DNA from: Capsulimonadales bacterium
GTDB lineage: Bacteria; Armatimonadota; Armatimonadia; Armatimonadales; Armatimonadaceae
DNA: 64,000 nt
Direction of reading: 5' to 3'
Assembly (NCBI GenBank): GCA_033762295.1
Contig: JANRLW010000083.1
Location: 16,600 to 80,599, forward strand
Under the pieces are notes generated by a model that was not told where the DNA came from, ran no database searches, and worked only from the letters and a program-made list of their open reading frames with translations. The position numbers and the translations under genes were made by a program. Numbering within the stretch: position 1 is the first letter of the stretch; each line of letters starts with the position of its first letter. Shown here piece after piece: positions 22,703 through 39,663 of this stretch.

Positions 22703-25700
22703 TTGATGTTCGTGAACATACGCCAGCGGGCAACGGTGTTTGCCCTTTTCGCAACGCTCGTGCTGGGCCTGTCTCTGCCCGCACAGGCGCAGAACGCCAA
22801 GTCGACTCCGACGAAAAAGACGACGGGTCGGTACACGGCACCGTTACCGGTACCGGTTTCTTCTTATCGTGGTTCCGGGCGCACCCGGCCGGTGGATAGC
22901 GGCGCTTCTACCGGCATGGCGATGGTGCCGACCCGGCGCGGACCGATGAAGGGGAACGGTATTTTTATTCCGTCCGATGTGCCCGTGCGTTCGACCGTCG
23001 GAGTCACCGGATTCAAGAAGGCGACCAGCCGCGTTCGGATCGGTGGCGCCAACGGCGCGTCCGTCACCGAAAAGGTGGTCAACCTGACGCAGACACCGGT
23101 TCCGGACGAGCGGGTGCCGGTCTGGACCGTCGACGAGCGGTTCCTGTACTTCGCGGGAAATTCCGCCGCCAACCCCGGTCGGTACAACATCTATCGTATC
23201 GCCTCCGATGAACCGACCGATGCCGGTGCCAACACCCCGGTCGCCATCTCCAATCCGGCGAATACCGGTTTTGACTACTACTTCCCTGTTATCAACCTGA
23301 ACCAGACCCGCGTTGCGTTTGTCAGGTCTTCCGATGGCAAGGACGTGGATGATCCGACCAAGAAGTGGGATCTCTATGTGGCCGACCTCCCCGCCAACGG
23401 CCAGTTCCTCGATACGGAGGAACTGGGGGCGAACAACCTGCGAAAACTGACCGAGGGACGTGACTTCCCGAACGGACAGGGTGGACGCGCCCGATTCGCT
23501 ACCGTCGGTCGGCCGGCCTGGGTGGGCAGTACGGATGTCGTCTTCTCCGCGCAGCTGGAAGGCGATCCGAACTTTCACCTCTTTTCGGTCAACATTCAGA
23601 CCCGTGTCATCTTCCAGTTGACGGCGGGCGCGGGCGACGAACGGAATCCGAGCGCCTCGCCGGATGGCCGCTATATTGCGTTCGACTCCAATGCCGAATC
23701 GAATACGACCGGCGGGACCTACGTCAGCGCACCGGCCGATCCCACCCGACGCGTGCGTACCGAGACGGATCCGGCCGCAACGCCGGCAGGTGCGGGTGCC
23801 GTCGGAAATACGCGAAACATCTTCATTATGGGGACACTCGGGCAGAACGTCCGGCAGTTTACCCTTCAGTATCCGGGTGCGCCCGCGGTCAGCAGCTTCC
23901 ATCCGACGTGGTCTTCCACCCAGAAGAATAACTTCATCAATCCGAACGGTGACGACCTCTTCATCGGGTTCGCCTCCGATCGTATACCTACTTTCGCCAG
24001 TGGGGACACAACGCAGAACACCGTCACCGGTTGGAACGCCGGACCGGCGAACACCAGCAGCATCTACTACGCGGTGGTCAGCCGCAACCAGGGGAATACT
24101 CTGCTTGGTGAAGCGGACCCGACCAATCTGGATGGTGTGGACGCAGATGGCGCGCGCCGTCTCGATACCGCCAACGATACGCTGCAGGGTGGGATTCTGA
24201 ACGACCAGACCCGACCCCGCTTCCGGGATCAGTATCCGACCTTCGCGCCGTTCGTCCGCGTCACGCGCATGTCCTGCCAGTCCAACCGCGTCGGCTCCTA
24301 CGCCAAGGATGGGATCGGGACGGGGTTCACGGTGACGAACGCCAAGGCGAACAACCTGTTCATTGCTTCCCTGATCGATATCACCGCGCCGACCCTGATC
24401 CGGTTCGACACGAGCAGTCCGACCGGCGAGGTCGTCCATATCAATCTGGTAACCAACGACGCCCAGCCGTACAACCCCGATCTCGCGGCCAGCGTTCGGA
24501 ACCGCTCCGATGGAATTACCCCCGGCTCGAAAGTCCACTTCGCCGTCCGTTTCGAGGATCGCGAGTCCGGAATGCGCCCGGAGAATAGTTCCGACGGAAA
24601 GGCGGTCTACCTTCAGATCAAGAACCCGAACTCCCGTTACCAGAGTGCCGCTCAGGGGGCATCCGTCCCGGATAACACTCACCGTGGCGAGCATAAGGAG
24701 TTCTACGACAACTTTACCGAAGCCTACGTGGAAGGGCAGACCTTCATTTCCTGGGCGAACCGGGCTACCGGGTACAACGTCGGCACGGAATTCGAAGCGC
24801 AGGCCATCAGTGCCATCTCGACCACCGATGCGGCTGCCGGAACCAACAATTTCCCCACCGACGTCGCCCGTGGAACGCCGTACTACAGCCACGAGTTCAA
24901 TACCTTCGGTGACGGTCCGCTTTACGTCCCGAGTTTCAACGACCGGGTCGCCTTCAGCGGAACCTTCGGTCATTTCGGTCGAGCGGTCGCGCCGCTCGAT
25001 GGTGGTACCTATACCGTTTACACAGGTGCCGGTGTCGCCCAAACGATTACCACACCGAATGTCTGGCTCCACCTGCGTCCGCTTGTTCAAACCGATGCCA
25101 ACGGACAGCCGGTAACGGACGCCAACGGCAATACGGTTCCGGTCCGTCCTGTCGATGGCAAAGGCGGTGTCCTTTATGGCGCTTCCTGGGTAACGCCTTC
25201 CGACGCCTCAGACTGGTATATCGACGTCATCGCCTACGATAACGCCGTCAATCCGTACAACCCCAATGAGCGTTCGAACGTCATCATCTACGATAACGTC
25301 TGGGGATTCTCGACGGCCGCTCCGATCTCCGGTCTGCCGCAGGATATTCTGGTCGTTTCGGATTACACGCTCGGGCAGAAGTTCTTCGCCTCGCGTTTCG
25401 GAACGCCGACCACCGACGACCGGTCGACGCGCAACCTCCAGCCCCTCTTCTGGGGAACCGAGTCCTATTTCACGGACGTCGACCTTCAGCGCTTCCCCTC
25501 CGAGCAGGCAGGACAGGAAGCGCCCTTTACAGGAACAACCCCGCCCAACCCGCCGAATGTCTGGGACCGCGATACGCCATTCCAGTTGTCCATCAGGACC
25601 AATTCCGGCGTTTTTGGTGGAAATTTCTACAACCGATCGGGATACCCGAACGTTCTGGGGGTTTCCTCCTACAACGACGAAATTCTGGACTCCAGTGCGG

Positions 25701-28700
25701 TCTTTGTCGATGCCGCCGGAGGGTTTGAAGGATACAAACTTCCCGTAACCGGGCGCTACAGCATCTATCGAGTCCTCAGCCGTGGACCGGTGCCTGCTGC
25801 CCTCCTGCAGGACTACCTGCCCCAGCAGACGGTCGCACCGGCAGACACCGCCCGGGGCGAAACCGTACCGCGTACCGTTCTCAGCGTCAACCGAATGGTC
25901 GTCTGGGCGTCCCCCTTTACGGGGAACCTTTTCACCGGGGCGGGTAGCCTGACGGACATTCAGACCCAGAACGATTTGACCAGCTATGTCCAGTCGGGCG
26001 GACGGCTCCTGATTTCCGGACAGGATATCGGTTTCGCACTCGCCGGCAACGGTCAAAACAACTTCTTTTTCAACAACATCCTGAAGGCAAGCTACCTTAC
26101 GGACGGAGGTGGCCAGTTCACCGGAATCCAGGCTGCAACCTTCTCCGGTAACTCCGATTATGTTCTCCAGTTGACGCGCGACCCCTGGACCCCGGCGACC
26201 GGGACCCACGCGTATGGTGCTTTCACCGGTGGCACCCTGCCCTGGCAGTACCGTCCGCTCGATACCGGCGCGCCGGGTGGTAACGGAATCGTTCGTTACG
26301 TCAGCAATACCGCGACCCTTGGAGAGCGTGTCGGAGACGCTTCGCAGTCGGCCAACAGCGACGCCGGTTTCGTCGATCGCATTCGTGCTAATCCGGGCGT
26401 GACCCCGACAGGAACGCCCGCCGGATCGCCGCCCGACTCGGTCGACCTGTTCCTCTTTCCCGGTAGTCCCGCCCCGCCCGCCTTCCCTGCGCCCGGAGCA
26501 CAGCCAACGGCCAGTGCAACCATCGCAGCCATCATCGGTAGTGCCGTGCCCTCCGGTTACAGCGCGATCGGACGAACGGTCTACGATCCCGCCCGGAGTG
26601 GTCAGCGCATCGGTAAGGTTGTCTATGCCGCGGCCGGTTTCGAATCCATCAGCCAGGGATGGTATAACTACGCGACCGGAACGCCAAGCATCACCTATCG
26701 AGCAACTCTCGGACGGCGTGCGGTTCTGATGCACAACATCACCTGCCACTTCCGCACCGGTTCCATCACAGGTCGAGTTCTCGACAATGAAGGCAAGCCC
26801 GTCAACGATGCCCTCGTTCGTGCCGTGCCGGATGTGGTCGACGATACGCAGGTCGCTACCGGTACGGCCCTGACCGACGAAAACGGAAACTTCCAGATCA
26901 TCGGTCTGCCGCCCGGATTCTATGTCCTCTTCGGGTACAAAGCCGGGTTCTATACCCAGCATAACCTCGGGAACACCGTCCATGGCGGATGGCGTGCAGC
27001 GGCCGACATCGCCCTGAAAGCCGCCGGACCCGGAGCCCTCAGCGGAGTTCAAAGGGGGACGGGCCAGCAGAACCCGCAGGGCGGCGTCTTCTCCGAGGAC
27101 GGAGTCACTCCGATCTCCGGAATCGAGATTCAGGTCCGCCGGCGAGAGGTGAACGGCCTCTATACCAAGGTCGTTTCCTACTCCTCCGACGGAAGCAACC
27201 GTGTTGTCCTTCCCGATGGTAGCTCGACGCAGCTTCCGGCGGGCGCGTACCTGTTCCCCGCCCTGTTGATCTCCGATTACCAGGTGGTCGCGAACAGCAT
27301 CTTCACCGTCCGGGACGGAAGAATCGTCGAGAAAGAGATTCGGGAGTTCCGCGACGCCAACGGCGCGATCTTCCGCGCTCACGTGAACGACGACGGCAGT
27401 CCGGTCAAGGAGCAGTACGGCGAGGTTCGCATCGGCGTCTCTCCGGCGAGCCAGTACCGGCTCGGAACCGGCGTCCAGGTGATTCCCGATCCGAACCCCG
27501 GTTCGGCCCAACCGATCGGACCGACCGTTCGCATCTCCGAGAACGTCACCGCTCAGGTCGACTTCCTGCTGCCCGCGCGGCCACAGCGGATCACCGGCCG
27601 CGTCCTGAATCAGGATAACAACCAGCCGATCGAGGACGCGATCGTCACCGCCACCCGCAAGAGCGACGGGACTCTGGTCGCTCAGGGAACGACCGACGCC
27701 AACGGCGTCTACACGCTGAGCCGAATCAACCCGCCGGCGGGCGATCCCGATCCGACGCTACTGCCGGGCGCCACCTATGTCGTCTCGGCAAGCGCCAACG
27801 GATTCAGTCCGAACGTGCCGCCGTCCGAAGCCAATAATCTGGATGTGGTCGTCGGTGGCCAGCTCGAGCAGACCGTGACCGCTCCGGATATCCGTCTGAA
27901 GACCCTGCCGCCGGGTTCGGTTTCCGGTCTGGTTCGCCGGTTCGCCGGTTCCCAGCCGACCACCTCGGCGACGGAAGGCGCGACGGTCGACTTCTACGCG
28001 GTACAGGTGGTCGGCGGACAGCAGGTCCAGTCGCCGAACATCTCCTATACGGCGACGGTCGGCGCGGTGCAAACCACGTCCGACGGGTACCAGTTCAACT
28101 TCCGAATCGCGGAAGTGCTGCCGGGTACCTACAATGCCTACGTCTCCAAGCCCGGCCTTTCCGGAAATCCCTCGCCCTTCGCCAACATCACGGTGACGAC
28201 CGGCGCGGAAACCCGGAACATCAACTTCATACTCGAACCGCCGAAGATCTACGGCCAGGGCCTTCAGCTCATCTCCGTGCCGCAGGACTACTCCGCGGTC
28301 GTCACCCGGGACGTCTTCGGTATCACGGCAAACGGTGATAACGATGGCGACGGAACCGCCGGTTCCGCCAACGATACGGCGATCCACAATATCTTCAACG
28401 TCGCCGACTGGTCGGGAACCAGCTACCAGACCTCGCCCGACCTCCGGCTCCGCCTCGGAAAAGGCTACTTTGTCCGGTTCGGAGACCAGGCGGCCATCGC
28501 CACCAGCGGCGCACCGACACAGGCCACCTCCTTCCGGATCGACCTGTCGCGCGGCTGGAACCTGATCGGGCATCCGTTCTCCAATCAGGTCAATCCGAGC
28601 GACCCGGCGGCGGATATCGACATCAGCGCACCCTCGATCGTCACCTACAGCTACGTGACCGTGACCGGCGTTCAGAGGACGGAAGTCTCCCTGGCGCAGG

Positions 28701-29710
28701 CGGTTTCCGATAACGCACTGCAGGGCGTGCTCTACAACTACACCGGTTCGGAAAACGGCAGTCTCTATCAGCCGGGTTCCCGACTGAAACAGTGGTTCGG
28801 CTACTGGATCCGGGCATTCGTCCCGGTCCGGATGACCCTGCGGTATCCGGGAACGGGAACCCGCGCGGTCAAGGCCGGAACGAAGAGCGGCGGGGTCTTC
28901 AAGTCGATAACCCGAGCGGAACGCGAACTGCACGTGCCGCTGGCGATCGCCTCGAAGAATGCCACCGACTGGCGACTTCAGATTGCCGCCCGCCAGGGTA
29001 ACCTGGCCGACACCGAGAACAGCGTCGGTGTCGCACCGGACGCGCATGAAGGGTTCGACAATCAGTACGACCATGAAAAACCGCCGATGGTCGGCGAGGC
29101 CCCTGCGCTGTACGTGGGAATCCTCGGCAAGGACATGGCCGGCCGTGCGACGACACTCTCCAGCAATGTCGCCGCTCCGGCGAACGCCACCACGTTCGAG
29201 TTCACCGTCCAAACAACGGCGGACGGACCGGTGACGGTCTACTGGCCCAACGTTTCCCGCTTGCCGCGCGGACTCGAACCGGTCCTGGTCGATACCGCGT
29301 CCGGTAAGCGGGTCGCCATGCGGAGCGGCTCCTCGTCCTACACGTTCACGCCGAACGGACGGGCCGAGCACCGGTTCCGTGTGGAAGTCTCCGCCGGGTC
29401 CAGCCTGCCGCTCGACATTCTGAACCTCCGGACGGCGTCCCGCGATATCAGCGGTGGCGGCAGCTACCGGTTCAGCTTCACGACCACCCGTGCGGTGAAC
29501 GTCAATGCGGAGATTCGCACACTGACCGGCAAACGGATCAAGCGGTTCCAGAGCCGGGCGGCGGGCGGCGTCGAAACCTCCGTCGTCTGGGACGGACGGG
29601 ACGAAGCCGGGCAGATGCTGCCGCCGGGACCGTATGTCCTGACCGTCACGGCTCAGGATGATCGCGGAGCCAGTGTCAGCCGAAGAGTATCCGTGCTGAA
29701 GAACCAGTAG
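22703..29710 (+). CDS. Giant exported protein: TolB/PD40-like beta-propeller, carboxypeptidase-regulatory-like Ig domains, shared C-terminal module with FlgD-like Ig tail
   Basis: GAGGAGG RBS; signal peptide '...LSLPAQA'; PD40-like blades ('ERNPSASPDGRYIAFDSN'); 'GSITGRVLDNEGKPV...TDENGNFQIIGLPPGFY'; tail 'VVWDGRDEAGQMLPPGPYVLTVTA'. Exact start (22703/22706/22712) uncertain. Confidence 0.88.
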   Translation: MMFVNIRQRATVFALFATLVLGLSLPAQAQNAKSTPTKKTTGRYTAPLPVPVSSYRGSGRTRPVDSGASTGMAMVPTRRGPMKGNGIFIPSDVPVRSTVGVTGFKKATSRVRIGGANGASVTEKVVNLTQTPVPDERVPVWTVDERFLYFAGNSAANPGRYNIYRIASDEPTDAGANTPVAISNPANTGFDYYFPVINLNQTRVAFVRSSDGKDVDDPTKKWDLYVADLPANGQFLDTEELGANNLRKLTEGRDFPNGQGGRARFATVGRPAWVGSTDVVFSAQLEGDPNFHLFSVNIQTRVIFQLTAGAGDERNPSASPDGRYIAFDSNAESNTTGGTYVSAPADPTRRVRTETDPAATPAGAGAVGNTRNIFIMGTLGQNVRQFTLQYPGAPAVSSFHPTWSSTQKNNFINPNGDDLFIGFASDRIPTFASGDTTQNTVTGWNAGPANTSSIYYAVVSRNQGNTLLGEADPTNLDGVDADGARRLDTANDTLQGGILNDQTRPRFRDQYPTFAPFVRVTRMSCQSNRVGSYAKDGIGTGFTVTNAKANNLFIASLIDITAPTLIRFDTSSPTGEVVHINLVTNDAQPYNPDLAASVRNRSDGITPGSKVHFAVRFEDRESGMRPENSSDGKAVYLQIKNPNSRYQSAAQGASVPDNTHRGEHKEFYDNFTEAYVEGQTFISWANRATGYNVGTEFEAQAISAISTTDAAAGTNNFPTDVARGTPYYSHEFNTFGDGPLYVPSFNDRVAFSGTFGHFGRAVAPLDGGTYTVYTGAGVAQTITTPNVWLHLRPLVQTDANGQPVTDANGNTVPVRPVDGKGGVLYGASWVTPSDASDWYIDVIAYDNAVNPYNPNERSNVIIYDNVWGFSTAAPISGLPQDILVVSDYTLGQKFFASRFGTPTTDDRSTRNLQPLFWGTESYFTDVDLQRFPSEQAGQEAPFTGTTPPNPPNVWDRDTPFQLSIRTNSGVFGGNFYNRSGYPNVLGVSSYNDEILDSSAVFVDAAGGFEGYKLPVTGRYSIYRVLSRGPVPAALLQDYLPQQTVAPADTARGETVPRTVLSVNRMVVWASPFTGNLFTGAGSLTDIQTQNDLTSYVQSGGRLLISGQDIGFALAGNGQNNFFFNNILKASYLTDGGGQFTGIQAATFSGNSDYVLQLTRDPWTPATGTHAYGAFTGGTLPWQYRPLDTGAPGGNGIVRYVSNTATLGERVGDASQSANSDAGFVDRIRANPGVTPTGTPAGSPPDSVDLFLFPGSPAPPAFPAPGAQPTASATIAAIIGSAVPSGYSAIGRTVYDPARSGQRIGKVVYAAAGFESISQGWYNYATGTPSITYRATLGRRAVLMHNITCHFRTGSITGRVLDNEGKPVNDALVRAVPDVVDDTQVATGTALTDENGNFQIIGLPPGFYVLFGYKAGFYTQHNLGNTVHGGWRAAADIALKAAGPGALSGVQRGTGQQNPQGGVFSEDGVTPISGIEIQVRRREVNGLYTKVVSYSSDGSNRVVLPDGSSTQLPAGAYLFPALLISDYQVVANSIFTVRDGRIVEKEIREFRDANGAIFRAHVNDDGSPVKEQYGEVRIGVSPASQYRLGTGVQVIPDPNPGSAQPIGPTVRISENVTAQVDFLLPARPQRITGRVLNQDNNQPIEDAIVTATRKSDGTLVAQGTTDANGVYTLSRINPPAGDPDPTLLPGATYVVSASANGFSPNVPPSEANNLDVVVGGQLEQTVTAPDIRLKTLPPGSVSGLVRRFAGSQPTTSATEGATVDFYAVQVVGGQQVQSPNISYTATVGAVQTTSDGYQFNFRIAEVLPGTYNAYVSKPGLSGNPSPFANITVTTGAETRNINFILEPPKIYGQGLQLISVPQDYSAVVTRDVFGITANGDNDGDGTAGSANDTAIHNIFNVADWSGTSYQTSPDLRLRLGKGYFVRFGDQAAIATSGAPTQATSFRIDLSRGWNLIGHPFSNQVNPSDPAADIDISAPSIVTYSYVTVTGVQRTEVSLAQAVSDNALQGVLYNYTGSENGSLYQPGSRLKQWFGYWIRAFVPVRMTLRYPGTGTRAVKAGTKSGGVFKSITRAERELHVPLAIASKNATDWRLQIAARQGNLADTENSVGVAPDAHEGFDNQYDHEKPPMVGEAPALYVGILGKDMAGRATTLSSNVAAPANATTFEFTVQTTADGPVTVYWPNVSRLPRGLEPVLVDTASGKRVAMRSGSSSYTFTPNGRAEHRFRVEVSAGSSLPLDILNLRTASRDISGGGSYRFSFTTTRAVNVNAEIRTLTGKRIKRFQSRAAGGVETSVVWDGRDEAGQMLPPGPYVLTVTAQDDRGASVSRRVSVLKNQ

Positions 29711-29737
29711 ACCGGCAACCTGTGCCGCCGTCAAAAA

Positions 29738-29768
29738 TCCCCTCCTGAAGCGGAATGTCAGGAGGGGA
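29738..29768. terminator. Hairpin after the giant gene
   Basis: TCCCCTCCTGA-N9-TCAGGAGGGGA, 11-bp stem; A-runs flank it and there is no U-tract on +. Confidence 0.55.
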
Positions 29769-29907
29769 AAACGGCGGACCTGATGAAAATACGAAACAGA
29801 ACCAAAATCCGAATTGGCTAGTCACCAATACGTTGCGATTGTAGGGGGCTGTCAGGGAACTGCGCCCGGGCCGAGCCTACGATGAGTGTTAACGGAGGAA
29901 TAACGCA

Positions 29908-32046
29908 TTGAGACACTTAGTGCTTGGAAGCCTGGGAAGGCGTGTTAGCTGGACGCTGGTCGCGCTCTGGCTGCTGCCTCTCTTTCTCCTGGCGATGCCG
30001 CCCCGACAGGCATACGCACAGTTGAACCGTATCCCGACGGTTGCTGTTCTGGACTTCGGCGTTCTCGCCACGGCTCGCTCCGGCGCTATTCTGGGGCGAA
30101 ATGCAACGGACGCCGTCGTGGTCGAAATGAGCCGGACCGGAAAATACGATCCGTTCTCCCGGACGCAGATCAATCAGCAACTGCAGGAACTCGGCCTGAC
30201 CCAACCGCTGAACAACAACAGCCTCCAGAAACTGGGGCAGGCGCTGGGTGTCGAATATATCGTGACGGGCGACGTCACCGGCGTTTCCTTCACGTCCAAC
30301 CCGCGACGGGCCAAGGTAACCCTTTCGGTCCGCCTGACCGACGTCGTCTCCGGCGACCTTGCGAACGGCGCGATCCAGACCGGTTTCTCCCCGGCGCCTC
30401 CGGCGGGAATGCAACCGGATGATGAGACGCTGATCAATCAGGCGCTCTCCGATGCGGCGTTTAATGCGATCAAAACGATCAATAACTACACCCTCCCTGA
30501 GGCGACCATTCTTCAGACCCGCGATACCACCGAAGTGACCCTGAACCGGGGTGGACGCGACGGTATCACCCCCGGTCTGGAGATGACCATCATTCGCGGA
30601 CGGGATCGTATCGGACGCGTTCAGGTGACCAGCGTCGGTTCCACCGACTCGATCGCCCGTGTTCTCGACTACGGTAAGGGCATCCGACCGGAGGACCGCG
30701 CCCGGGCCGTCTTCAAACTGCCGGGCTACAGCGTCGCAACCGACGGTCTCATCACCTCCACCGTTCCCGACACGACCTCGTACAAGCCCCAGGGACGACG
30801 CGCCAAGCCGATCCTGACGACGATTCTGGCGATCGGCGCGGCCATCTTCCTCGCCCACCTGCTGTTCGATACCAAGTCCCGAACCAATGAGGCGACCGGT
30901 ATCGGAAAGATCGTCGCCCGGGCGTATGCCGAAGGGTCCGCTCCGGCCGCCGGCGATCCGGCCACCGCACGCGTCCTGGTCACATGGGAGCAGGCGTCCG
31001 ATATCCCCTCGCGTAACGTCATCGAATACCATGTCTGGCGCAACAACCAGATCATCGGTGTCTCGACGAACGCCAACCGGACGTTTATCGACGTGCCGAC
31101 CCCGAACTTCACTCAGTTGACCTACACCACCGTCTCTTTCGGGAATCAGCCTCCCGGAAACGGTCCGGGTAACGGTGGGAACACCGCCGGAACGACCACC
31201 GGTGGAAATACGGGTGCGACGACCGGCGGAACCACGACCGGTGGTGGTGTCGGTGGTGGTGTCGGTGGTGGTGTCGGTGGTGGTGTCGGTGGTGGTGTCG
31301 GTGGCGGAGCGAACGCCGGTAACGGCAACTCCTTCCCGATCGGGTTCCTGTCGACCCAGACGGCGAACGTCACCGGCCTCCCCGTCGGTGTTACCAGTAC
31401 CTACCAGATTAATATCGTCTACCAGAAAGTCGTTGCTCCGACCGTCACGACCGGCGGTGGAGGTGTCGGCGGCGGTGTTGGTGGCGGCATCGGCGGCGGT
31501 GGTGTCGGTGGCGGCATCGGCGGCGGCGGTGTCGGTGGCGGTGTCGGTGGCGGTGTCGGTGGTGGCGTCGGCGGCGGTGTTGGTGGTGGCGTCGGTGGTG
31601 GTGTTGCCGGCGGCGGAACCCTCCAGTACCAGGAAACCGCCGTTCGTGCGAGCAGCGGACCGGTCACTCCGATCGCCCGTCCGGCAATCAGCGGTCCGAC
31701 GACCGACCAGGACATCCGACGCGTCGTGGTCCAGTTCGGAACCGTTCAGGGTGCGGACCAGTACGTGTTCGAGTTCGCCAGCGATCCGAGCTTCCGTAAC
31801 AAGACGGTTCGCGGCCCGTTCTTCTTCCCTGTCGCCAGCGGAACGACGAACACCGATCCGCTCGACATCTCCGGAGCATTCGCCTCGCTGAACAGTAACT
31901 CGCCGATCTACTTCCGGGTGGGCGCGAGATCGTCCAACGACCAGCCGGGACCGCTCGGAACCGGTACGCCGAACGGTGGGGATTACATCTATTCCGCCAC
32001 ACCGTTCTCGTTCAAGAAGACCCTGACCCCGCCGAACCAACCCTAG
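29908..32046 (+). CDS. Exported CsgG/TolB-N-like plus FlgT-C-like protein with internal hydrophobic helix, FN3-like region and (GGGV)n inserts
   Basis: GGAGGA RBS and TTG start; signal peptide; 'TVAVLDF...LQKLGQALGVEYIVTGDV...SVRLTDVVSG'; 'VTLNRGGRDGITPGLEMTIIRG'; 'RRAKPILTTILAIGAAIFLAHLLF'. Confidence 0.8.
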   Translation: MRHLVLGSLGRRVSWTLVALWLLPLFLLAMPPRQAYAQLNRIPTVAVLDFGVLATARSGAILGRNATDAVVVEMSRTGKYDPFSRTQINQQLQELGLTQPLNNNSLQKLGQALGVEYIVTGDVTGVSFTSNPRRAKVTLSVRLTDVVSGDLANGAIQTGFSPAPPAGMQPDDETLINQALSDAAFNAIKTINNYTLPEATILQTRDTTEVTLNRGGRDGITPGLEMTIIRGRDRIGRVQVTSVGSTDSIARVLDYGKGIRPEDRARAVFKLPGYSVATDGLITSTVPDTTSYKPQGRRAKPILTTILAIGAAIFLAHLLFDTKSRTNEATGIGKIVARAYAEGSAPAAGDPATARVLVTWEQASDIPSRNVIEYHVWRNNQIIGVSTNANRTFIDVPTPNFTQLTYTTVSFGNQPPGNGPGNGGNTAGTTTGGNTGATTGGTTTGGGVGGGVGGGVGGGVGGGVGGGANAGNGNSFPIGFLSTQTANVTGLPVGVTSTYQINIVYQKVVAPTVTTGGGGVGGGVGGGIGGGGVGGGIGGGGVGGGVGGGVGGGVGGGVGGGVGGGVAGGGTLQYQETAVRASSGPVTPIARPAISGPTTDQDIRRVVVQFGTVQGADQYVFEFASDPSFRNKTVRGPFFFPVASGTTNTDPLDISGAFASLNSNSPIYFRVGARSSNDQPGPLGTGTPNGGDYIYSATPFSFKKTLTPPNQP
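31240..31299 (+). repeat. Coding tandem repeat, 5 perfect copies of GGTGGTGGTGTC (GGGV)
   Basis: Counted directly from the sequence. Confidence 0.95.
31453..31617 (+). repeat. Coding degenerate repeat, (GGG[G]V/I)n, 55 codons
   Basis: Translation GGGGVGGGVGGGIGGGGV...VAGGG with mixed synonymous codons. Confidence 0.93.
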
Positions 32047-32065
32047 TCGGATCGGCTCCGCAGGA

Positions 32066-32097
32066 GGGAAAGGGACGCCGGTTGGCGTCCCTTTCCC
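32066..32097 (+). terminator. Strong hairpin after the CsgG-like gene
   Basis: GGGAAAGGGACGCC-GGTT-GGCGTCCCTTTCCC, 14-bp stem; a second small hairpin lies at 32101-32120. Confidence 0.65.
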
Positions 32098-32267
32098 GGA
32101 GAAGGCGAAATAACGCCTTCGGTCTTTCGGATACGTTTTCGTGTGCCATACAGGAGGACCGAAACGCCTGGTGGCAAACGCCATTGTCGACAAACTGAAA
32201 CCCTGGCCCGGTGAAGGCGGGTTGATCAATAGCAGGCACACGACAGAAAGCCTACTGGTAACATTAC

Positions 32268-35200
32268 ATGAGAAAGAACCTACGTCGTATCAGAGCCAAT
32301 TCCTCTGCTACACGGATGCTGGCAGGACTGGCTGTTACGTTATGCCTTGCCTCGCTGGCCTTCGCTGGCGACCCGCCCGTTCCCAAAATCCAGGCGGGCG
32401 AAATCATCGTCAAGGTCGCTCCGGGCACGACGATCGACGCCGCCCGGCAACTGGCCGCCGACTCGGGATGTGAACTCCTGCGCTCCATTCCGTACGCCCC
32501 GAACTACTACGTGTTCCGGGCGGTCAAGTATGGGAACCTTACCGAGAAGCTGGTCGCCGAGGTCGATGACGATACTCGGACCGCGATCGGGAAACTGAAA
32601 TCCGTTCCCGGAGTCCTTGCGGCCGATCCCAACTATATTATCAACAAAGCGTTCGTCGAGAAGCCGGTTGTCCCGCTGCGCCCACAGACGGGCAACGCCA
32701 CGACCGCGGCGTCCCGGGCGACCGCGCCGCCCGACCCCTGGCGGTTCACCCCCAATGACGCTCTGTACGGGCGGCAGTACGGTCTGCCGATGATCCGAAT
32801 GCCGGAGGCCTGGAGTATCCAGTCCTCCGCGCGACGGGTGATTGTCGGGGTCGCCGATTCCGGTATCGATGTCGGACATCCCGACTTCGCCACGGCGGAC
32901 GGAACCGGGACACGTATCGTCGGAGGCCGGAACTTCTTCCCGGACGGCACGGGCGGAGCCGTCGATCCGAACGATATTCAGGATCGCGGTGGCCACGGAA
33001 CCCACGTTTCCGGTACGGTCGGAGCCACGACCAATAACGCGATCGGGGTCGCCAGTGTCGCCGGGTACAACGGCGGCGGGGTCGATGTGCAGTTCCGGGT
33101 CGCCCGCGTCTTCGGTCAGGCGGTCGGCGCGACCACCGATGTCGTGGTCAGCGGCGTCGGCTACCTCGTTGACCAGAACGTCGATGTCATCAACCTCAGT
33201 CTCGGCGGGTATGGCGACGTAACGGCCATGCGCGACGTGATCGCTCGGGGTATCGCCCAGGGAATCACCATCGTCGCCTCCCTGGGGAACGACGGATTCG
33301 ATACCGCACAACTTCCTTCGTTTCCCGCCTCCTATCCGGGAGTGATCGCCGTCTCCGCGGTCAGCATTGACCGTCGTCTGGCCTCTTACTCCAACTTCGG
33401 CGGAGTGGTTGCGATCGGCGCCCCCGGCGGCGACACCGCCAACCCCAACATCAATCTCTTCGATCAGCAGATCTGGTCGACCTGGCCCCGAACCGAACCC
33501 AATTTCGGCGGCGTGGCCGGGTACGAAGCCATCAGCGGAACGTCGATGGCCGCACCGCACGTTACCGGTGCCGTCGCTCTGCTGCTGGCGGCCGGTGCGC
33601 CCCGCAATCCGGCGACCATCAAGGCCGTTCTTCAGGATAATGCCCAGCGACTTCCGGATGACGTCCCGAACAATGCGGGTGGCAACAAATACGGCGCGGG
33701 TCTTCTGGACGTCTACTCGGCGTTGCTGAACTACGCCGACCCCGCGTTCCGCATCGGATTCGTCGGGGACCTGGACCTCGGATCGTTTTATTCCTCCCAG
33801 CTTCCCGCTTTCCAGGTGCGCGCCATCGGTATCACCCGTGCCCCGGCGGCAGGAGCGGTCCGAATCGAGATTCAGAGCGCGACAATCCCGGTCAGCGTGG
33901 TACGAACCCTGGTCGAAGGGACCGATTTCACGATCCCGCGGACGCTCGGACCTTCCCAACCGAAGGCGACCGTCGTGACGGTCACCGCCGGAGGAGCGAA
34001 CCTGAACCTGGCTCCCGGACGGTATAAGGCCGTTCTGAAAATCGGCGATGAAGTCTTCGGCAACCAGTTCTTCGAGATCATCTCTCGGACCCAGACGGCG
34101 GTGCGTTCGCTTTTCTCGTTCCCCTTCAAGGTCCGGTCCGTCATTCCGACCAATCCGGAGCAGGCGGTGTTCAACCCGGCTGTCTTTTCGCTGGCACGGT
34201 ACAACTCGCAGCGCTCCGCGACCGGTCCGGACTACCTGATCTATCGCTCGAACGGCAGTTCGAACGATCCCGGCGCCCGTTTCTCGGCGACCTTTACCGA
34301 CAACTCTCCGATCGTTTTCGAGGTGACCGACCCGACGACCTCGATTGCGCCGGTCGGTCTCGGGTACTGGCTCGATCTGGATAGGCCGGTGACCCTCAAT
34401 ACGGTCGGTCCCGTGGCCGCCAATGCGGTCGGAATCCGTCTGACCTCCGCCGCCGGTGGCTGGAACCTGATCGGTGCGCCGTTCACCAAGCCGTCCGCCT
34501 GGGGGACCGTGTCGGTTCTCTACAACAACACGACCTACAGCCTGAACGACGCGATCATTCAGGGGGTCATCTCCAGCGCACTGGTCGGCTATGTCAACGG
34601 CGACTATGTGTATAACATTGCGCCGAACGGGAATCTGGAGCCGTTCCAGGGATACTGGGTGCATGTCCTCCGGGACTGTACGTTGATCATCGCGCCGACC
34701 AACGTCGGACGGTCCGTTACCGGACTGGTGCCGACCCGCCAGGCGATCACGCAGGACAAGAGCGGATGGCGCGCCCGCTTTATGGCGACCGTGGCCGGTG
34801 ACCGGGATGGTCAGAACTACTTCGGCCAGGCCTCCTCGGCGTCCGAAGGAAACGACCTGCTCGATATTCCCAAGCCGCCGACGGGCTCAGGACATGCGTA
34901 TGTCCGGTTCCTGACGCCGGTTGGAGAAGGGCGCTCGGTTCCGAATGCGTTCGATATCCGCCCGCTCGACACCGGGTCGAAGACCGAGTGGACGGCGGCG
35001 GTCAGCACCGACCGGATCAACGCCGATGTCACCGTGACCTGGGACGGACTGGGGAACGTGCCGCGCCGCAATATTCTGACTCTGACCGATACGGCGACGG
35101 GACGCAAGATCGATATGCGGAACCGGTCGTCCTATACGTTCAAGTCGGGCGAGGCGGGGACCACCCGGAAATTCACGATCACTCTGTCGTCCGCGCGAAG

Positions 35201-35516
35201 CGCCGGTCTCCTCGCGATCAATAATGTCGCGGTCTCCGGCGGACGAAGCACGGCGCAGGCCGGAATCGCCGTTCGTTTCAGTGTCACTGCCGAAGCGGAA
35301 ATCACGGGAACGATCAAATCGCTTACCGGGGTGAAGGTCGGTTCTCTGACCGGGGTCAGTCGTGCAGTGACAGGGGGGACTAACACTCTGCGCTGGGACG
35401 GCCGATCTCAAAGCGGAGCCGTACTGCCGCCCGGACCTTACCTGCTTGAAATCACCGCCCGTTCGGCAGACGGACAGACCGCGACCTTCAAGCAGCCGGT
35501 CCAGATGATGCACTGA
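32268..35516 (+). CDS. Exported S8 subtilase with prodomain, shared C-terminal module and FlgD-like Ig tail
   Basis: Signal peptide; prodomain 'GEIIVKV...ADPNY'; triad motifs 'VGVADSGID', 'GHGTHVSG', 'SGTSMAAPHV'; tail 'LRWDGRSQSGAVLPPGPYLLEITA'. Confidence 0.92.
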   Translation: MRKNLRRIRANSSATRMLAGLAVTLCLASLAFAGDPPVPKIQAGEIIVKVAPGTTIDAARQLAADSGCELLRSIPYAPNYYVFRAVKYGNLTEKLVAEVDDDTRTAIGKLKSVPGVLAADPNYIINKAFVEKPVVPLRPQTGNATTAASRATAPPDPWRFTPNDALYGRQYGLPMIRMPEAWSIQSSARRVIVGVADSGIDVGHPDFATADGTGTRIVGGRNFFPDGTGGAVDPNDIQDRGGHGTHVSGTVGATTNNAIGVASVAGYNGGGVDVQFRVARVFGQAVGATTDVVVSGVGYLVDQNVDVINLSLGGYGDVTAMRDVIARGIAQGITIVASLGNDGFDTAQLPSFPASYPGVIAVSAVSIDRRLASYSNFGGVVAIGAPGGDTANPNINLFDQQIWSTWPRTEPNFGGVAGYEAISGTSMAAPHVTGAVALLLAAGAPRNPATIKAVLQDNAQRLPDDVPNNAGGNKYGAGLLDVYSALLNYADPAFRIGFVGDLDLGSFYSSQLPAFQVRAIGITRAPAAGAVRIEIQSATIPVSVVRTLVEGTDFTIPRTLGPSQPKATVVTVTAGGANLNLAPGRYKAVLKIGDEVFGNQFFEIISRTQTAVRSLFSFPFKVRSVIPTNPEQAVFNPAVFSLARYNSQRSATGPDYLIYRSNGSSNDPGARFSATFTDNSPIVFEVTDPTTSIAPVGLGYWLDLDRPVTLNTVGPVAANAVGIRLTSAAGGWNLIGAPFTKPSAWGTVSVLYNNTTYSLNDAIIQGVISSALVGYVNGDYVYNIAPNGNLEPFQGYWVHVLRDCTLIIAPTNVGRSVTGLVPTRQAITQDKSGWRARFMATVAGDRDGQNYFGQASSASEGNDLLDIPKPPTGSGHAYVRFLTPVGEGRSVPNAFDIRPLDTGSKTEWTAAVSTDRINADVTVTWDGLGNVPRRNILTLTDTATGRKIDMRNRSSYTFKSGEAGTTRKFTITLSSARSAGLLAINNVAVSGGRSTAQAGIAVRFSVTAEAEITGTIKSLTGVKVGSLTGVSRAVTGGTNTLRWDGRSQSGAVLPPGPYLLEITARSADGQTATFKQPVQMMH

Positions 35517-35616
35517 GGACGAGTCGCCTTCGCCCGGTCCTTCGCCTGACCTGTCCTGCCGGACGGGGAATGCGCCGATCGGGCGATCCGAATCAACAAC
35601 AGGAGATGCTTTCTCA

Positions 35617-38600
35617 ATGGCGATTTTCGCTGCAACCATAAAAGGCCGTTCGGAGAACCGACGCGTCCGGCGCGCCGGGCAAGCAACCGGTCGGGGTCGC
35701 GCCCTCATTGGCGCCCTTGCCGTAGTGCCTGCCCTCGCCCTTGCCGGTCCGGCAACGGCCCAGACCGTCGGCAACCAGGGAGCGGTCAGCGGTTCCCGGG
35801 TGCTCTTTGAGTTTTTCGGATATGGTGGCCTGGTCCAACCGAACAACACCGATGCTACCAACCCGACGCTGGTTCCGATCCAGGATGCCGTTTTCGGGTT
35901 TATCAAGAACCCGTACCTGGGCGTCGTCGTCGGCATCGGCGGCACCTACGGAGTCAGCTGGCCCGCCGGAACCAGTTCGGTTACCGCCACCCACAACGTT
36001 GCCGGGATGCTCACGTTCGGAAACGTGGACGGTAGTTCCCGGTTCTCGACCGATAACCTTCAGGCGCTGAACGGGTTCAACTATTTCGCCGGGGCCTACG
36101 AAATCTATGACACCGCCTCCGGTCGGCCGTTCGGCTATGGCGTCTGGCCGCTACCCGGTTGGTGGGAAATCACGAGCGGCGGTTTCATTACCTACGAATA
36201 TTCGGCCTATACCCGGATTCAACTGGACGATACCGTCACCAATGTGATGGGGTCCAACGGGGTCATCACCGAGCCGCAGATGATCAACAGCGTCCTCAGG
36301 ACGCCCTATGATGTCGGAAGCAACGTCCAGGTCGAACAGCAGATTCGCCTCTACCGGGCGACGGCCCAGTTGCGCTGGCGGATTACCAACAACGATACCG
36401 CGCCGCATACGGTCCGTCTGCGATTCACCGTGAACGTCCGCCCCGGCGTCCTGGCCGGTTCGACCGACACATCCAGAACCGGGTACTACTTCCTCGATGG
36501 GAACGGGCTGGTCTCCGATAACGCCCGTATCCTGACCGCCGCCGGTATTCCGGACCAGTTGACCGTCTACGGGAAGCGGTACGAGGTCGACAGCACGATC
36601 GACCCGCCGTTCGCCGCCCGCCATACGCTGCGTGGGTTCGGCGCGACGATTCCGGAACGGGTGGTTCTGGCGCATCCCTTCGAACTGCGTCCGAATGTCG
36701 GCGGATTCTATCTGAACAGCTTCAACCGACCCAAACTTTCGGACGGCGTGGCGACGGCGGTCTACTTCGGGCCGTACACGCTGGCCCCCGGAGCGACCCA
36801 GGAAGTCGTCACCTACTACGGCAACGGATCGCCGACCGAAATTCCCAACAACGACTTCGTCATCTCCGCCGATGGGCCGGAAGCTCTGGCTTACAATGCG
36901 AACGCCGTAAACGATCCGACGATCGCCGGGAACGTCGCCAAAGATCCGAACCAGGCGATTCCGAAATTCCTGTCGCCGAGTCCGTTCACCCTCTACGGGT
37001 CCATCTACAACTGGACCCCGCGCGACCCGCTGAACGCCGTCGGCATCACGAACGTCCGCGCCTCGCTGACACTGCCGACCGGCCTGGTGCTGGTGAGCGG
37101 AGAGACCGCCGAAAAGCTTGTGAACGGGAACGGAAATCTGGCCGCCGACACCGGAGCGGATATCGGCTGGGCGGTTGTTCCGACCGGAGACGCGTTCGGA
37201 ACTCTGGCCTATCAGATCAACATGGCCACGAACGAATTTGGCTCCCGCCAGATTACCCGTTCGATCAACGTTCCGGCCACACCGTTCCGACGTGTTACCG
37301 AGAACACCTTCCAGATGATCGGCTTCCCGTTCGAGTTCGACACCACCACGTCGAATAACGCCGATCCATCGACGGTTGTCAACGGTCTGACCAGCCCGGC
37401 CGATGATCCGGTCGTGTTCTATCAGTATGTCCCCGACCCGCAGAACGCGAACGGCCTGGGACGATACGTCGTCGCCAATCGGCTCCAAACCGGCATCGGC
37501 TACTTCTACAAGCCGAACCTGACGCGAACGATCTACGCCAGGGGCGTCAAGCCGCTCGCCGGGCAGGCGAACACCGGGGTTACGGATTTCAGCAACGCCA
37601 ACCAGCGACAGCTAAACCTGGCCCGCGGATGGAATATCATCTCGAACCCGTATCTCTACGATATTCCGCTTCGCTCGCTGCGGTTTGTTACCAACATCAA
37701 CAGCAACCCGGTTTCCCAGAACTTCACTGAGGCCGTTCGCAACGGCGTGATTCGGGGCGGCGTTTTCTACCTCTCCACCGTGACCGGCAGCTACGATTTC
37801 TTCGAAGACACGGCGTTGCCGCTGAAGCCCTGGGAAGGTTACTGGATCTTCACGACCCAACCGATTACCCTGATCTACTCCCTGCCGACCCAGCGTCAGT
37901 CCGCGATTCTGCCCGCTCCCGGTGCGGACCCGAACCCGCCGACCCGCGGGGTCATCGCCTCCGGGCGAGCGATGGTCGCCCGGCCGACCGATGAGAACTG
38001 GCGGCTCCAGATTGTCGCCCGGAAGGGGAACGAACAAAACGACCGCGCGACCATCCTGGGGGTCAATACGGACCGAAGCGTCACCGACGCGGAGCGAACC
38101 GTCCCGAAACCGCCCGCCGGTGTCTCCGATTATGTGTACGTCGGCGTGGTTCGCCCGGAGACGTCCACCACCCGATTTGCCAAGGACATCCGGGCGACGG
38201 GTCGGACCAACGAATGGGAACTGGAAGTGTCCGCCGACCAGGATGGCCCGGTGACGCTGACCTGGCCAAACATCGGCACCCTGCCCCGCCGCCTGACGCT
38301 GTCGCTGAAGGATAAGGAGACCGGACGCGCCTACGCGATGCGCTCCTCCTCGTCCGTCACGATCAACGTCCGCAAAGGACAGCCGACCCGCGTCGTGGTG
38401 ACCGCGAAACAGGCCTCGGCCCAACCGCTCACGATCACCAATGTGCAGATTGTCGGAGGCCGTGGTCAGGCGGGTGGAAGCCGTTCCTTCGCGTTCAGCC
38501 TGAGCCGCGCCGCGACGGTCACCGGGAAGGTCAAAACCATCACCGGGAAAACCGTGGCGACCCTGGCGGTAAGCCGGGCGGCGAGTTCGGGAACCAACCG

Positions 38601-38730
38601 ACTGCAATGGAACGGACGAGCGGAGAACGGATCGATGATTCCGCCGGGGCCGTACAAGATCGAAATCGTCGCTCAGGACGATTCCGGCGAGACGGCTTCG
38701 CGCACCCAGCCCTTCATGACTATTGAATAG
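35617..38730 (+). CDS. Exported 1037-aa protein of unknown function with shared C-terminal module and FlgD-like Ig tail
   Basis: AGGAG RBS; signal peptide '...ALAGPATA'; beta-rich N-terminal half; tail 'LQWNGRAENGSMIPPGPYKIEIVA'. Confidence 0.85.
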   Translation: MAIFAATIKGRSENRRVRRAGQATGRGRALIGALAVVPALALAGPATAQTVGNQGAVSGSRVLFEFFGYGGLVQPNNTDATNPTLVPIQDAVFGFIKNPYLGVVVGIGGTYGVSWPAGTSSVTATHNVAGMLTFGNVDGSSRFSTDNLQALNGFNYFAGAYEIYDTASGRPFGYGVWPLPGWWEITSGGFITYEYSAYTRIQLDDTVTNVMGSNGVITEPQMINSVLRTPYDVGSNVQVEQQIRLYRATAQLRWRITNNDTAPHTVRLRFTVNVRPGVLAGSTDTSRTGYYFLDGNGLVSDNARILTAAGIPDQLTVYGKRYEVDSTIDPPFAARHTLRGFGATIPERVVLAHPFELRPNVGGFYLNSFNRPKLSDGVATAVYFGPYTLAPGATQEVVTYYGNGSPTEIPNNDFVISADGPEALAYNANAVNDPTIAGNVAKDPNQAIPKFLSPSPFTLYGSIYNWTPRDPLNAVGITNVRASLTLPTGLVLVSGETAEKLVNGNGNLAADTGADIGWAVVPTGDAFGTLAYQINMATNEFGSRQITRSINVPATPFRRVTENTFQMIGFPFEFDTTTSNNADPSTVVNGLTSPADDPVVFYQYVPDPQNANGLGRYVVANRLQTGIGYFYKPNLTRTIYARGVKPLAGQANTGVTDFSNANQRQLNLARGWNIISNPYLYDIPLRSLRFVTNINSNPVSQNFTEAVRNGVIRGGVFYLSTVTGSYDFFEDTALPLKPWEGYWIFTTQPITLIYSLPTQRQSAILPAPGADPNPPTRGVIASGRAMVARPTDENWRLQIVARKGNEQNDRATILGVNTDRSVTDAERTVPKPPAGVSDYVYVGVVRPETSTTRFAKDIRATGRTNEWELEVSADQDGPVTLTWPNIGTLPRRLTLSLKDKETGRAYAMRSSSSVTINVRKGQPTRVVVTAKQASAQPLTITNVQIVGGRGQAGGSRSFAFSLSRAATVTGKVKTITGKTVATLAVSRAASSGTNRLQWNGRAENGSMIPPGPYKIEIVAQDDSGETASRTQPFMTIE

Positions 38731-38880: not shown

Positions 38881-39663
38881 ATGACGCAAACTATGAAAAA
38901 AACCTCTCTTGGAGCGACAGGGATTCTGGCTGCCACTCTCCTGTTGACGGCGACCCTTCAAGCTCCCGCATATTCACAGCAGACAACCGCTTCGTCGCAA
39001 TCGGCGAAGTCCATGACCGCCGGAGTCAAACCGCTGCCGACCAACGTCCTGTTGTTCCCGGCGGTCATCATCGGCGCGGATAACGCCGTGGCCAAGGAAA
39101 CGCCGGCGACCAAGGTGGCGGGCGAAATCGTCACCGAAGCGGTCCGCAAATATCTCACCCTCGGCGGCGTCGGGGTTGTGGTCTACAGCAACCGCCTCCC
39201 CAGCGTTCAGCGCGCGGTCAACGAAGGCCAGGGAATCTCGCCGACCGATGCGGTGAAAGGACCCGCCGACGATGCGCGCGTCGCACAGAAGCTGGCGGAG
39301 GTGACCGGAGCGTCCGAGTACATCACCATCTCCGTGGATAACTACAATTTCGATCCGCAGACCCGCCGCGCCACGTTCAACCTGAGCCTCGAACGCAAAG
39401 CGGCAGACGGCTCCGCCATCTCCTCCGCCGCCGAAAAGGCGGTGGGCGAATCGCCGGCCGATGTCTCCGGACCCCAGCAGCAGGAATCGGCGATTGCCCG
39501 GGCGGCCGAGGAAGTCGCCGAAAAGAGCGTCATCGACGTCTTTCCGCAGTCCGCCGTGCTGATCAACCCTCCCAAGGTCGCGGAAAAGAAGAAGAAGCGA
39601 TCCAACCTTGGCTGGCTGATTCCCGTCGTCACTCTGGGCGGCATCCTCGCGGCGCCGCGCTGA
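38881..39663 (+). CDS. Exported alpha/beta (CsgG/TolB-N-like) protein with basic + hydrophobic C-terminal tail
   Basis: Signal peptide; 'VLLFP...AQKLAEVTGASEYITISVDNY'; C-terminus 'KKKKRSNLGWLIPVVTLGGILAAPR'. Fold call is tentative. Confidence 0.7.
   Translation: MTQTMKKTSLGATGILAATLLLTATLQAPAYSQQTTASSQSAKSMTAGVKPLPTNVLLFPAVIIGADNAVAKETPATKVAGEIVTEAVRKYLTLGGVGVVVYSNRLPSVQRAVNEGQGISPTDAVKGPADDARVAQKLAEVTGASEYITISVDNYNFDPQTRRATFNLSLERKAADGSAISSAAEKAVGESPADVSGPQQQESAIARAAEEVAEKSVIDVFPQSAVLINPPKVAEKKKKRSNLGWLIPVVTLGGILAAPR

Follow-up and report, generated by a model that had tools for sequence, protein, structure and literature searches.

Three large proteins, P0001, P0002, and P0003, encoded in a 64,000-nucleotide stretch of a Capsulimonadales bacterium genome (JANRLW010000083.1; the whole stretch is called the window here, and coordinates follow its own numbering), share a C-terminal cassette of ~470 residues, and the homology extends well beyond the short FlgD-like tail that is the only part covered by a named family. 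A model of the P0003 module obtained with AlphaFold 2 (AF2) divides the cassette into three domains, termed D1, D2, and D3, with a linker between the first two. D1 is the constant part and is present in every architecture; it belongs to no named family, and its predicted structure is without a match to any solved fold. We propose, with a rough probability of 45%, that the cassette is a shared device for targeting to, or retention in, the envelope, in which D1 would be the binding part.

A Long C-Terminal Cassette on Unrelated Proteins

In whole-protein BLASTP, each pair of proteins aligned colinearly along a single long C-terminal stretch, spanning 424 columns at 27% identity for P0001 and P0002 (E 9e-26), 434 columns at 31% identity for P0001 and P0003 (E 6e-43), and 420 columns at 32% identity for P0002 and P0003 (E 5e-44). 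A sequence-only reading of the window had claimed that a module marked by a series of colinear motifs is common to the three proteins, and the alignments bear this out: all of the motifs occupy the same columns of a three-way alignment (LISVP.., GxGY[FW], GWN[LI]I, GYW[IV], WR, KPP, VT.xW, PR, MR, TG, and W[DN]GR..PPGPY), and the module starts determined here (28250, 34110, and 37294) lie no more than 15 bases from those given earlier. Nor is the similarity confined to the last ~95 amino acids (aa). With the FlgD-like tail (the last ~90 aa) cut off, the three proteins still matched one another at E 3e-15 to 5e-27, and a value of 2e-35 was reached when a fourth copy was included, which is encoded on another contig of the genome and is attached to a fourth unrelated N-terminal part. 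Each of the two upstream domains connects all four copies by itself, with pairwise E values of 3e-6 to 5e-14 for D1 and 1.6e-12 to 5e-26 for D2. Shuffled sequences (100 per pair) gave maxima of 21.6–29.3 bits versus 62.8–98.2 bits observed. Outside the cassette, no relatedness was found among the N-terminal parts (best pairwise E 0.087), in agreement with the earlier description of the host proteins as unrelated. The view of an old module under selection, far longer than the tail that is all annotation names, is likewise supported.

P0001 (22703..29710, + strand, 2335 aa, with a further ATG at 22706) is composed of a signal-peptide-like N-terminus (..LSLPAQAQ), a PD40/TolB-like repeat, two CarboxypepD_reg domains, an fn3_3 domain, and the cassette, in which D1 (28250..28858, +, 203 aa) is followed by the linker and D2 (28859..29437, +) and by D3 (29438..29707, +), a FlgD_ig domain (PF13860) scoring 36.4 bits. 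P0002 (32268..35516, +, 1082 aa) displays a putative signal peptide, a Peptidase_S8 domain at residues 190–472 with the triad motifs DSG, HGTH, and GTSMA visible, and a cassette consisting of D1 (34110..34706, +, 199 aa), the linker and D2 (34707..35237, +), and a FlgD_ig-like D3 (35238..35513, +) that, at 26.7 bits, falls just below the family cut-off of 27 bits. P0003 (35617..38730, +, 1037 aa) begins with 559 aa without a Pfam family, after which the cassette follows: D1 (37294..37884, +; model residues 1–197) with its two homologous halves, a Pro/Ala-rich linker (37885..37983, +) in which the predicted local distance difference test score (pLDDT) drops below 50 at model residues 200–226, the D2 beta-sandwich (37984..38418, +; model residues 231–375), and a FlgD_ig D3 of 36.7 bits (38422..38727, +; model residues 377–478) whose predicted fold resembles the C-terminal domain (CTD) of type IX secretion system (T9SS) cargo.

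D1, a Duplicated Domain without a Named Family

D1 is a beta-rich domain of about 175–200 aa. The AF2 model of the whole P0003 module, built from a 24-sequence alignment, reached a pLDDT of 82 and a predicted template modeling (pTM) score of 0.71, while D1 modeled alone from 68 sequences reached 88 and 0.85, respectively. A ~90-aa unit is duplicated within the domain, as the two halves of D1 align with one another over 66 columns (hhalign probability 96%, E 4.2e-9); a G-Y-W strand closes each half, and the motif GWNLIGxP opens the second. The unit may also exist on its own elsewhere. Near-invariant residues are Gly, Trp, Tyr, Asn, and Pro, as in GxGYW, GWN, and GYW.

Searches for relatives of D1 and D2 among named families and solved structures were negative. 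Foldseek comparison of the D1 model with the PDB gave a best E of 0.07, an exhaustive VIA-align comparison with solved chains gave a best Z of 3.1 with none of 48161 chains at Z ≥5, and a second VIA-align look gave a best Z of 3.0. The ~370 aa upstream of FlgD_ig matched no Pfam family in three of the four D1-D2 segments at E up to 10, and the fourth returned a single chance-level match (UPF0731, E 0.1). When 68 D1 sequences were compared with Pfam at E up to 1, chance-level matches at most were retrieved, none of them to WxL, and NCBIfam likewise had no match over D1-D2. No carbohydrate-binding module (CBM), SLH, or other named anchoring family from Pfam or NCBIfam matched this region, and the ESM Atlas contained D1 and D2 in unnamed clusters only. 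When PDB sequences were searched with the D1-D2 profile, the best result, an aspartate-semialdehyde dehydrogenase at E 0.052, was taken as chance. Judged against solved structures alone, D1 may be a new fold.

Distribution, Architectures, and Passengers

A D1-D2 profile retrieved 8409 cluster representatives at E 0.001 from 1.84 billion proteins, 3836 at 1e-10, and 675 at 1e-30. Both domains were present in each of the 150 best representatives, and in 139 of these D2 ends 70–115 residues before the C-terminus; D1 is repeated in one of the 150 and D2 in two. Judging by record titles, the family occurs mainly in Armatimonadota (Armatimonadaceae, Fimbriimonadales, Chthonomonas, "Zipacnadia", and others), with scattered matches in records labeled Ignavibacteriota, Bacteroidota, Calditrichaeota, Neomarinimicrobiota, and Bacillota. 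Across 201 sampled Armatimonadota genomes, the D1 profile matched 183 (159 of the 170 of high quality, and 108 of 117 genera), at 1 to at least 17 copies per genome, with scoring limited to 17 candidates. D1 was not found in the ten genomes of one family (f25), and another family was mixed (11 of 18).

The earlier reading had treated the module as a single unit, a point that was not borne out, given that its three domains occur as D1, D1-D2, D1-D2-FlgD_ig, and D1-D2-Por_Secre_tail. Most proteins possess the D1-D2-D3 arrangement. Proteins with D1 only, ending 1–21 residues past this domain, are found in a number of lineages, among them the family that is sister to the window's own, and D1-D2 without D3 was observed at one locus.

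The proteins that carry the cassette were surveyed in 39 of the 150 best representatives, hand-picked for length spread. Peptidase_S8 and CarboxypepD_reg were each detected in 9 of the 39, and PD40, GSDH, LVIVD, Reg_prop, a C39-like peptidase, Glucodextran_B, and Big_1 were also encountered. Further open reading frames (ORFs) added sedolisin-type prodomains, beta-helix/NosD, CBM20/CBM48, FG-GAP, and Ig arrays.

One explanation of these data is that D1, by itself or together with D2, acts as a CBM-like ligand-binding module by which hydrolases and propeller proteins are brought to an external polymer. Conserved Gly, Trp, Tyr, Asn, and Pro motifs of the kind that are near-invariant in D1 are typical of sugar-binding surfaces, proteases and CBM20/CBM48 proteins are among the passengers, and in phyla with a T9SS a separate sorting domain lies downstream of the module (see below). 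Binding modules, however, usually occur in tandem and at varied positions, whereas D1-D2 is single and C-terminal in nearly all 150 representatives; it also resides on three genes of one conserved operon, and it matched neither a Pfam CBM family nor a lectin fold. We regard such an external ligand-binding role as unlikely.

D2, D3, and the FlgD-Like Tail

D2 forms a beta-sandwich of about 145 aa that has not been named. The only named family, FlgD_ig, covers just the last ~75 aa of the cassette; the D3 domains of P0001 and P0003 are members, D1 and D2 have no FlgD_ig match, and apart from this assignment of D3 the cassette is outside every family tested. The likeness to the hook-capping protein FlgD is limited to D3, which matches both the Ig-like domain PF13860 and the FlgD structure 3osv (Z 9.1, root-mean-square deviation [rmsd] 1.6 Å over 75 aa), whereas the cassette proteins are large secreted enzymes and not hook-assembly proteins. 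An identity as FlgD hook assembly proteins was rejected, with NCBIfam scores of 15–31 bits against cut-offs of 230–383. The best single-domain match of D3 is the CTD of PorU (6za2_B, Z 11.2, rmsd 2.4 Å, 94 aa, 18% identity), and the CTD of PorZ (5m11) follows at Z 9.3; many unrelated Ig-like and FN3 domains also match D3 at Z 9–10.

Within this genome, a C-terminal FlgD_ig tail is found only on the four cassette proteins, and the tail was accordingly rejected as a general tag there. The genome contains five FlgD_ig matches in all. The fifth is located at residues 62–112, in the N-terminus of a protein (contig C64, locus L103 1-1839, − strand) with weak NHL, SGL, and Reg_prop-like propeller matches. 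An orthologue database lists the cassette proteins as "hypothetical protein" or "FlgD immunoglobulin-like domain containing protein", and a homologue search with the P0003 module yielded orthologues only (32 proteins) and no new architecture.

For D2 and D3 taken together, the best structural match is residues 606–802 of the protease Vpr (8jmw_A; Z 12.9, 159 aa, 16% identity), at an rmsd of 9.6 Å that leaves the match showing little beyond two beta-sandwiches in a row. Vpr, like P0002, combines an S8 protease with two beta-sandwich domains at the C-terminal end; it has no D1, and a tandem Ig-like arrangement is common. Excerpts of one report describe the Vpr C-terminal domains as holding an active extracellular fibril together (PMC10657474). 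By analogy, the cassette could be a co-assembly module, with the tails of the operon proteins packing, laterally or head to tail, into a fiber, a lattice, or a defined hetero-complex. Besides the Vpr pair of assembly domains being the top match, this idea draws on the finding that, at loci with at least two complete cassette genes, all of these genes have the same architecture, either D1 only or D1-D2-D3 (except at locus L052), as expected of tails stacking in register. The concordance is only a hint because the genomes are related and not independent, tandem Ig-like domains match many unrelated proteins, and 1 to at least 17 copies per genome would be ill-fitting for one fixed complex. Co-assembly appears somewhat less probable still than ligand binding. 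Co-folding of the D1 domains of P0001 and P0002 with P0003 as the partner gave a score of 0.00 in two runs, which were without controls and in one of which the fold of the P0003 partner was uncertain; this result weighs neither way.

Relation to Type IX Secretion

In two of the 39 surveyed representatives, D1-D2 is followed by Por_Secre_tail (PF18962), directly after D2 in P0127 and also in P0154. Eleven D1-D2 ORFs were in addition picked from loci of other phyla or from loci without the gene cluster described below, and four of these carry Por_Secre_tail (at L090, with 54.7 bits, L061, L079, and L082); ten of the eleven score as FlgD_ig, additionally or instead, and one as CHU_C. Because Por_Secre_tail takes up the place after D1-D2 in other phyla, D3 is equivalent to a T9SS CTD in position and structure. 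Further points of likeness to T9SS cargo CTDs are that D3 is an Ig-like domain of ~90 aa at the extreme C-terminus of varied secreted proteins and that the records with a Por_Secre_tail-scoring domain after D1-D2 include Calditrichota, Marinimicrobia, and others outside Armatimonadota. There are also differences: FlgD_ig is the only family that D3 matches in this genome, the cassette has five times the length of a cargo CTD, and its constant part is D1 and not D3.

The secretion machinery itself was not detected. SprA exceeded its cut-off in none of 61 sampled Armatimonadota genomes (E 1e-20), compared to all five of the positive-control genomes, which come from other phyla and encode D1-D2 proteins. 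In this genome, which is 94.5% complete, the search for SprA (cut-off 200) returned a 52-bit fragment match and nothing more, and there is no Por_Secre_tail match at E 0.01, on P0001–P0003 or elsewhere. PorV and PorU were not found in this genome either, weak negatives given that no control genome scored over the cut-off. Searches of this genome for GldM and GldL also retrieved nothing and are uninformative because a working positive control was lacking: GldM was not found in the five SprA-positive genomes either, and GldL had no positive control.

The fragment match to SprA belongs to an 1183-aa ORF (contig C85, locus L106 2364-5915, + strand) that is rich in Ser, Thr, Asn, and Gly, has a beta-barrel-like look and no Pfam family, and shares a stretch of ~100 residues with SprA positions 587–687 at 52 bits. 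It adjoins genes for a polysaccharide pyruvyl transferase and a DUF5693 protein. ORFs of ~1050–1180 aa with the same short SprA match were observed in three of the five control genomes of other phyla.

These findings bear on the proposal that the cassette, or D3 alone, is an export signal for an unrecognized Armatimonadota outer-membrane translocon, comparable to a T9SS CTD and perhaps cleaved off. Such a role would account for a D3 that is T9SS-CTD-like in fold and interchangeable with Por_Secre_tail in other phyla, at the end of a cassette that is single, C-terminal, and borne by varied passengers. It is at odds with the SprA counts and with the lack of detectable PorV, PorU, and Por_Secre_tail in this genome; moreover, whole lineages carry D1 without D3, and four tail carriers are few for a general secretion signal. 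Of the explanations considered, we judge this one the least probable.

A Conserved Gene Cluster around P0004

The gene between P0001 and P0002 (29908..32046, + strand) lies outside the module, encodes the 712-aa protein P0004, and is a constant neighbor of cassette genes. P0004 contains an N-terminal hydrophobic segment, a CsgG/LpoB-like domain at residues 39–150, a hydrophobic helix near residues 300–320, and long Gly-rich (GGGV)n stretches between FN3-like pieces. Downstream of P0003 are a 260-aa ORF (38881..39663, +) without a Pfam family, conserved in close relatives, and a 688-aa ORF (39767..41833, +) with an N-terminal Big_1/Invasin_D3 domain, which marks the end of the conserved cluster. 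Across Armatimonadota, the co-directional cluster consists of the giant D1 protein, a P0004-like protein, a subtilase with D1, a protein of unknown kind with D1, the 260-aa ORF (in close relatives), and the Big_1 protein. A P0004 homologue was present in the fetched flank of 50 of 75 D1-bearing loci from public genomes, always in the same order, and sits between cassette genes in most Armatimonadota loci, while none was found in the fetched flanks of D1 loci from other phyla.

With its N-terminal domain in 198 of 201 sampled Armatimonadota genomes, P0004 is a near-universal signature gene of the phylum. Strict co-occurrence of P0004 and D1 was rejected on account of genomes that have P0004 but in which D1 was not detected. 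P0004 is therefore independent of D1, although D1 proteins may need P0004. In family f25, P0004 is accompanied only by the homologue of the Big_1 protein. At one such locus (L107, genome G162), no giant, subtilase, or D1 gene was observed within 20 kb, and the P0004 and Big_1 pair standing alone there argues for a cluster made up of a two-gene core to which D1 genes were added.

At the locus of the fourth cassette gene, an ORF of 311 aa that resembles a lipoprotein and contains three CarboxypepD_reg domains (L004 2766-3701, + strand) directly follows that gene; the domain type is also found in the giant P0001.

In its organization, the cluster resembles the WxL clusters of Firmicutes, which, in the available portions of two reports (PMC10599100; bioRxiv 10.64898/2026.10.17.759780), encode several secreted proteins with a common C-terminal domain of ~160–200 aa beside a membrane-anchored protein, the WxL-interacting protein. 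The likeness concerns organization only, namely several cluster proteins sharing a C-terminal domain next to a conserved membrane protein. The phylum and the partner protein differ, and the 68 D1 sequences are without a Pfam WxL match. As for the WxL fold, no solved chain exceeded Z 3.1 to the D1 model, which does not in itself exclude membership in that family.

A Possible Envelope-Targeting or Retention Device

The proposed targeting or retention role is based on the following observations: the set of domains is non-catalytic, single, and C-terminal; its exported passengers are unrelated; it is present on more than one gene of a conserved operon; and its end domain is interchangeable with a sorting domain. 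According to this proposal, P0001–P0003 and the fourth protein would be exported via Sec, each with an unrelated N-terminal working part (a TolB-like/carboxypeptidase-regulatory-like giant, a subtilase, and two of unknown kind) and with the same non-catalytic cassette at the end. After export, D1 would bind a common envelope component, which may be a glycan or one of the proteins from the conserved cluster, and would in this way co-localize the protease with the giant and their partners. D2-D3 would act as an Ig-like spacer and end-piece, possibly of common ancestry with T9SS sorting domains and working here without a T9SS. The sequence-only reading had suggested a sorting, anchoring, or lattice-forming module; the position, copy number, passengers, and replacement of D3 all fit this suggestion and do not separate its three options.

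Several considerations weigh against the targeting or retention role. We infer export, binding, the ligand, and retention in the envelope alike, and the signal peptides were judged by eye. In T9SS phyla, D1-D2 stands before a true sorting domain and therefore need not itself sort or anchor. The conserved aromatic motifs would fit a carbohydrate-binding site equally well. P0004 occurs in all ten genomes of f25, the family without detectable D1. The term "surface" could also mean the periplasm, as the envelope type is not established here.

A bolder version of the targeting or retention proposal is that D1 is a new fold that, with the P0004-like and Big_1 proteins, forms an Armatimonadota-specific, T9SS-independent system for sorting or assembling secreted enzymes on the envelope. 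Its T9SS-type end domain would have been either recruited or inherited from a common ancestor. We consider this version unlikely.

Other Features of the Window

Long antisense ORFs of 650–775 aa oppose the plus-strand genes (22844-25090, 25208-27511, 27758-29734, 29917-32241, and 32340-34664, all on the − strand). These are not genes and are expected in DNA of 63% G+C; the one opposite P0004 has a third-position G+C of 0.63 versus 0.76–0.78 in the neighboring real genes. Elsewhere in the window, 10782-14219 (− strand) encodes a STAND-type signaling or defense-like protein of 1145 aa, an nSTAND1 NTPase that contains TPR repeats and weakly matches DUF4062 at its N-terminus.

Significance

Armatimonadota are widespread and poorly studied. 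Searches of the literature on Armatimonadota C-terminal secretion domains and on FlgD Ig-like or T9SS tails found nothing in print on the cassette, and nothing was found on the Armatimonadota envelope or on the display of secreted enzymes in this phylum. D1, unnamed and yet present in about nine of ten Armatimonadota genomes, represents a clear gap in domain libraries, and thousands of proteins now recorded as "hypothetical" or "FlgD Ig-like domain containing" would be better annotated if D1 and D2 were named. The cassette also ties T9SS-type CTDs to a phylum without detected T9SS and thereby bears on the evolution of sorting domains, while the conserved cluster provides a concrete gene set for asking how Armatimonadota organize their surface proteases.

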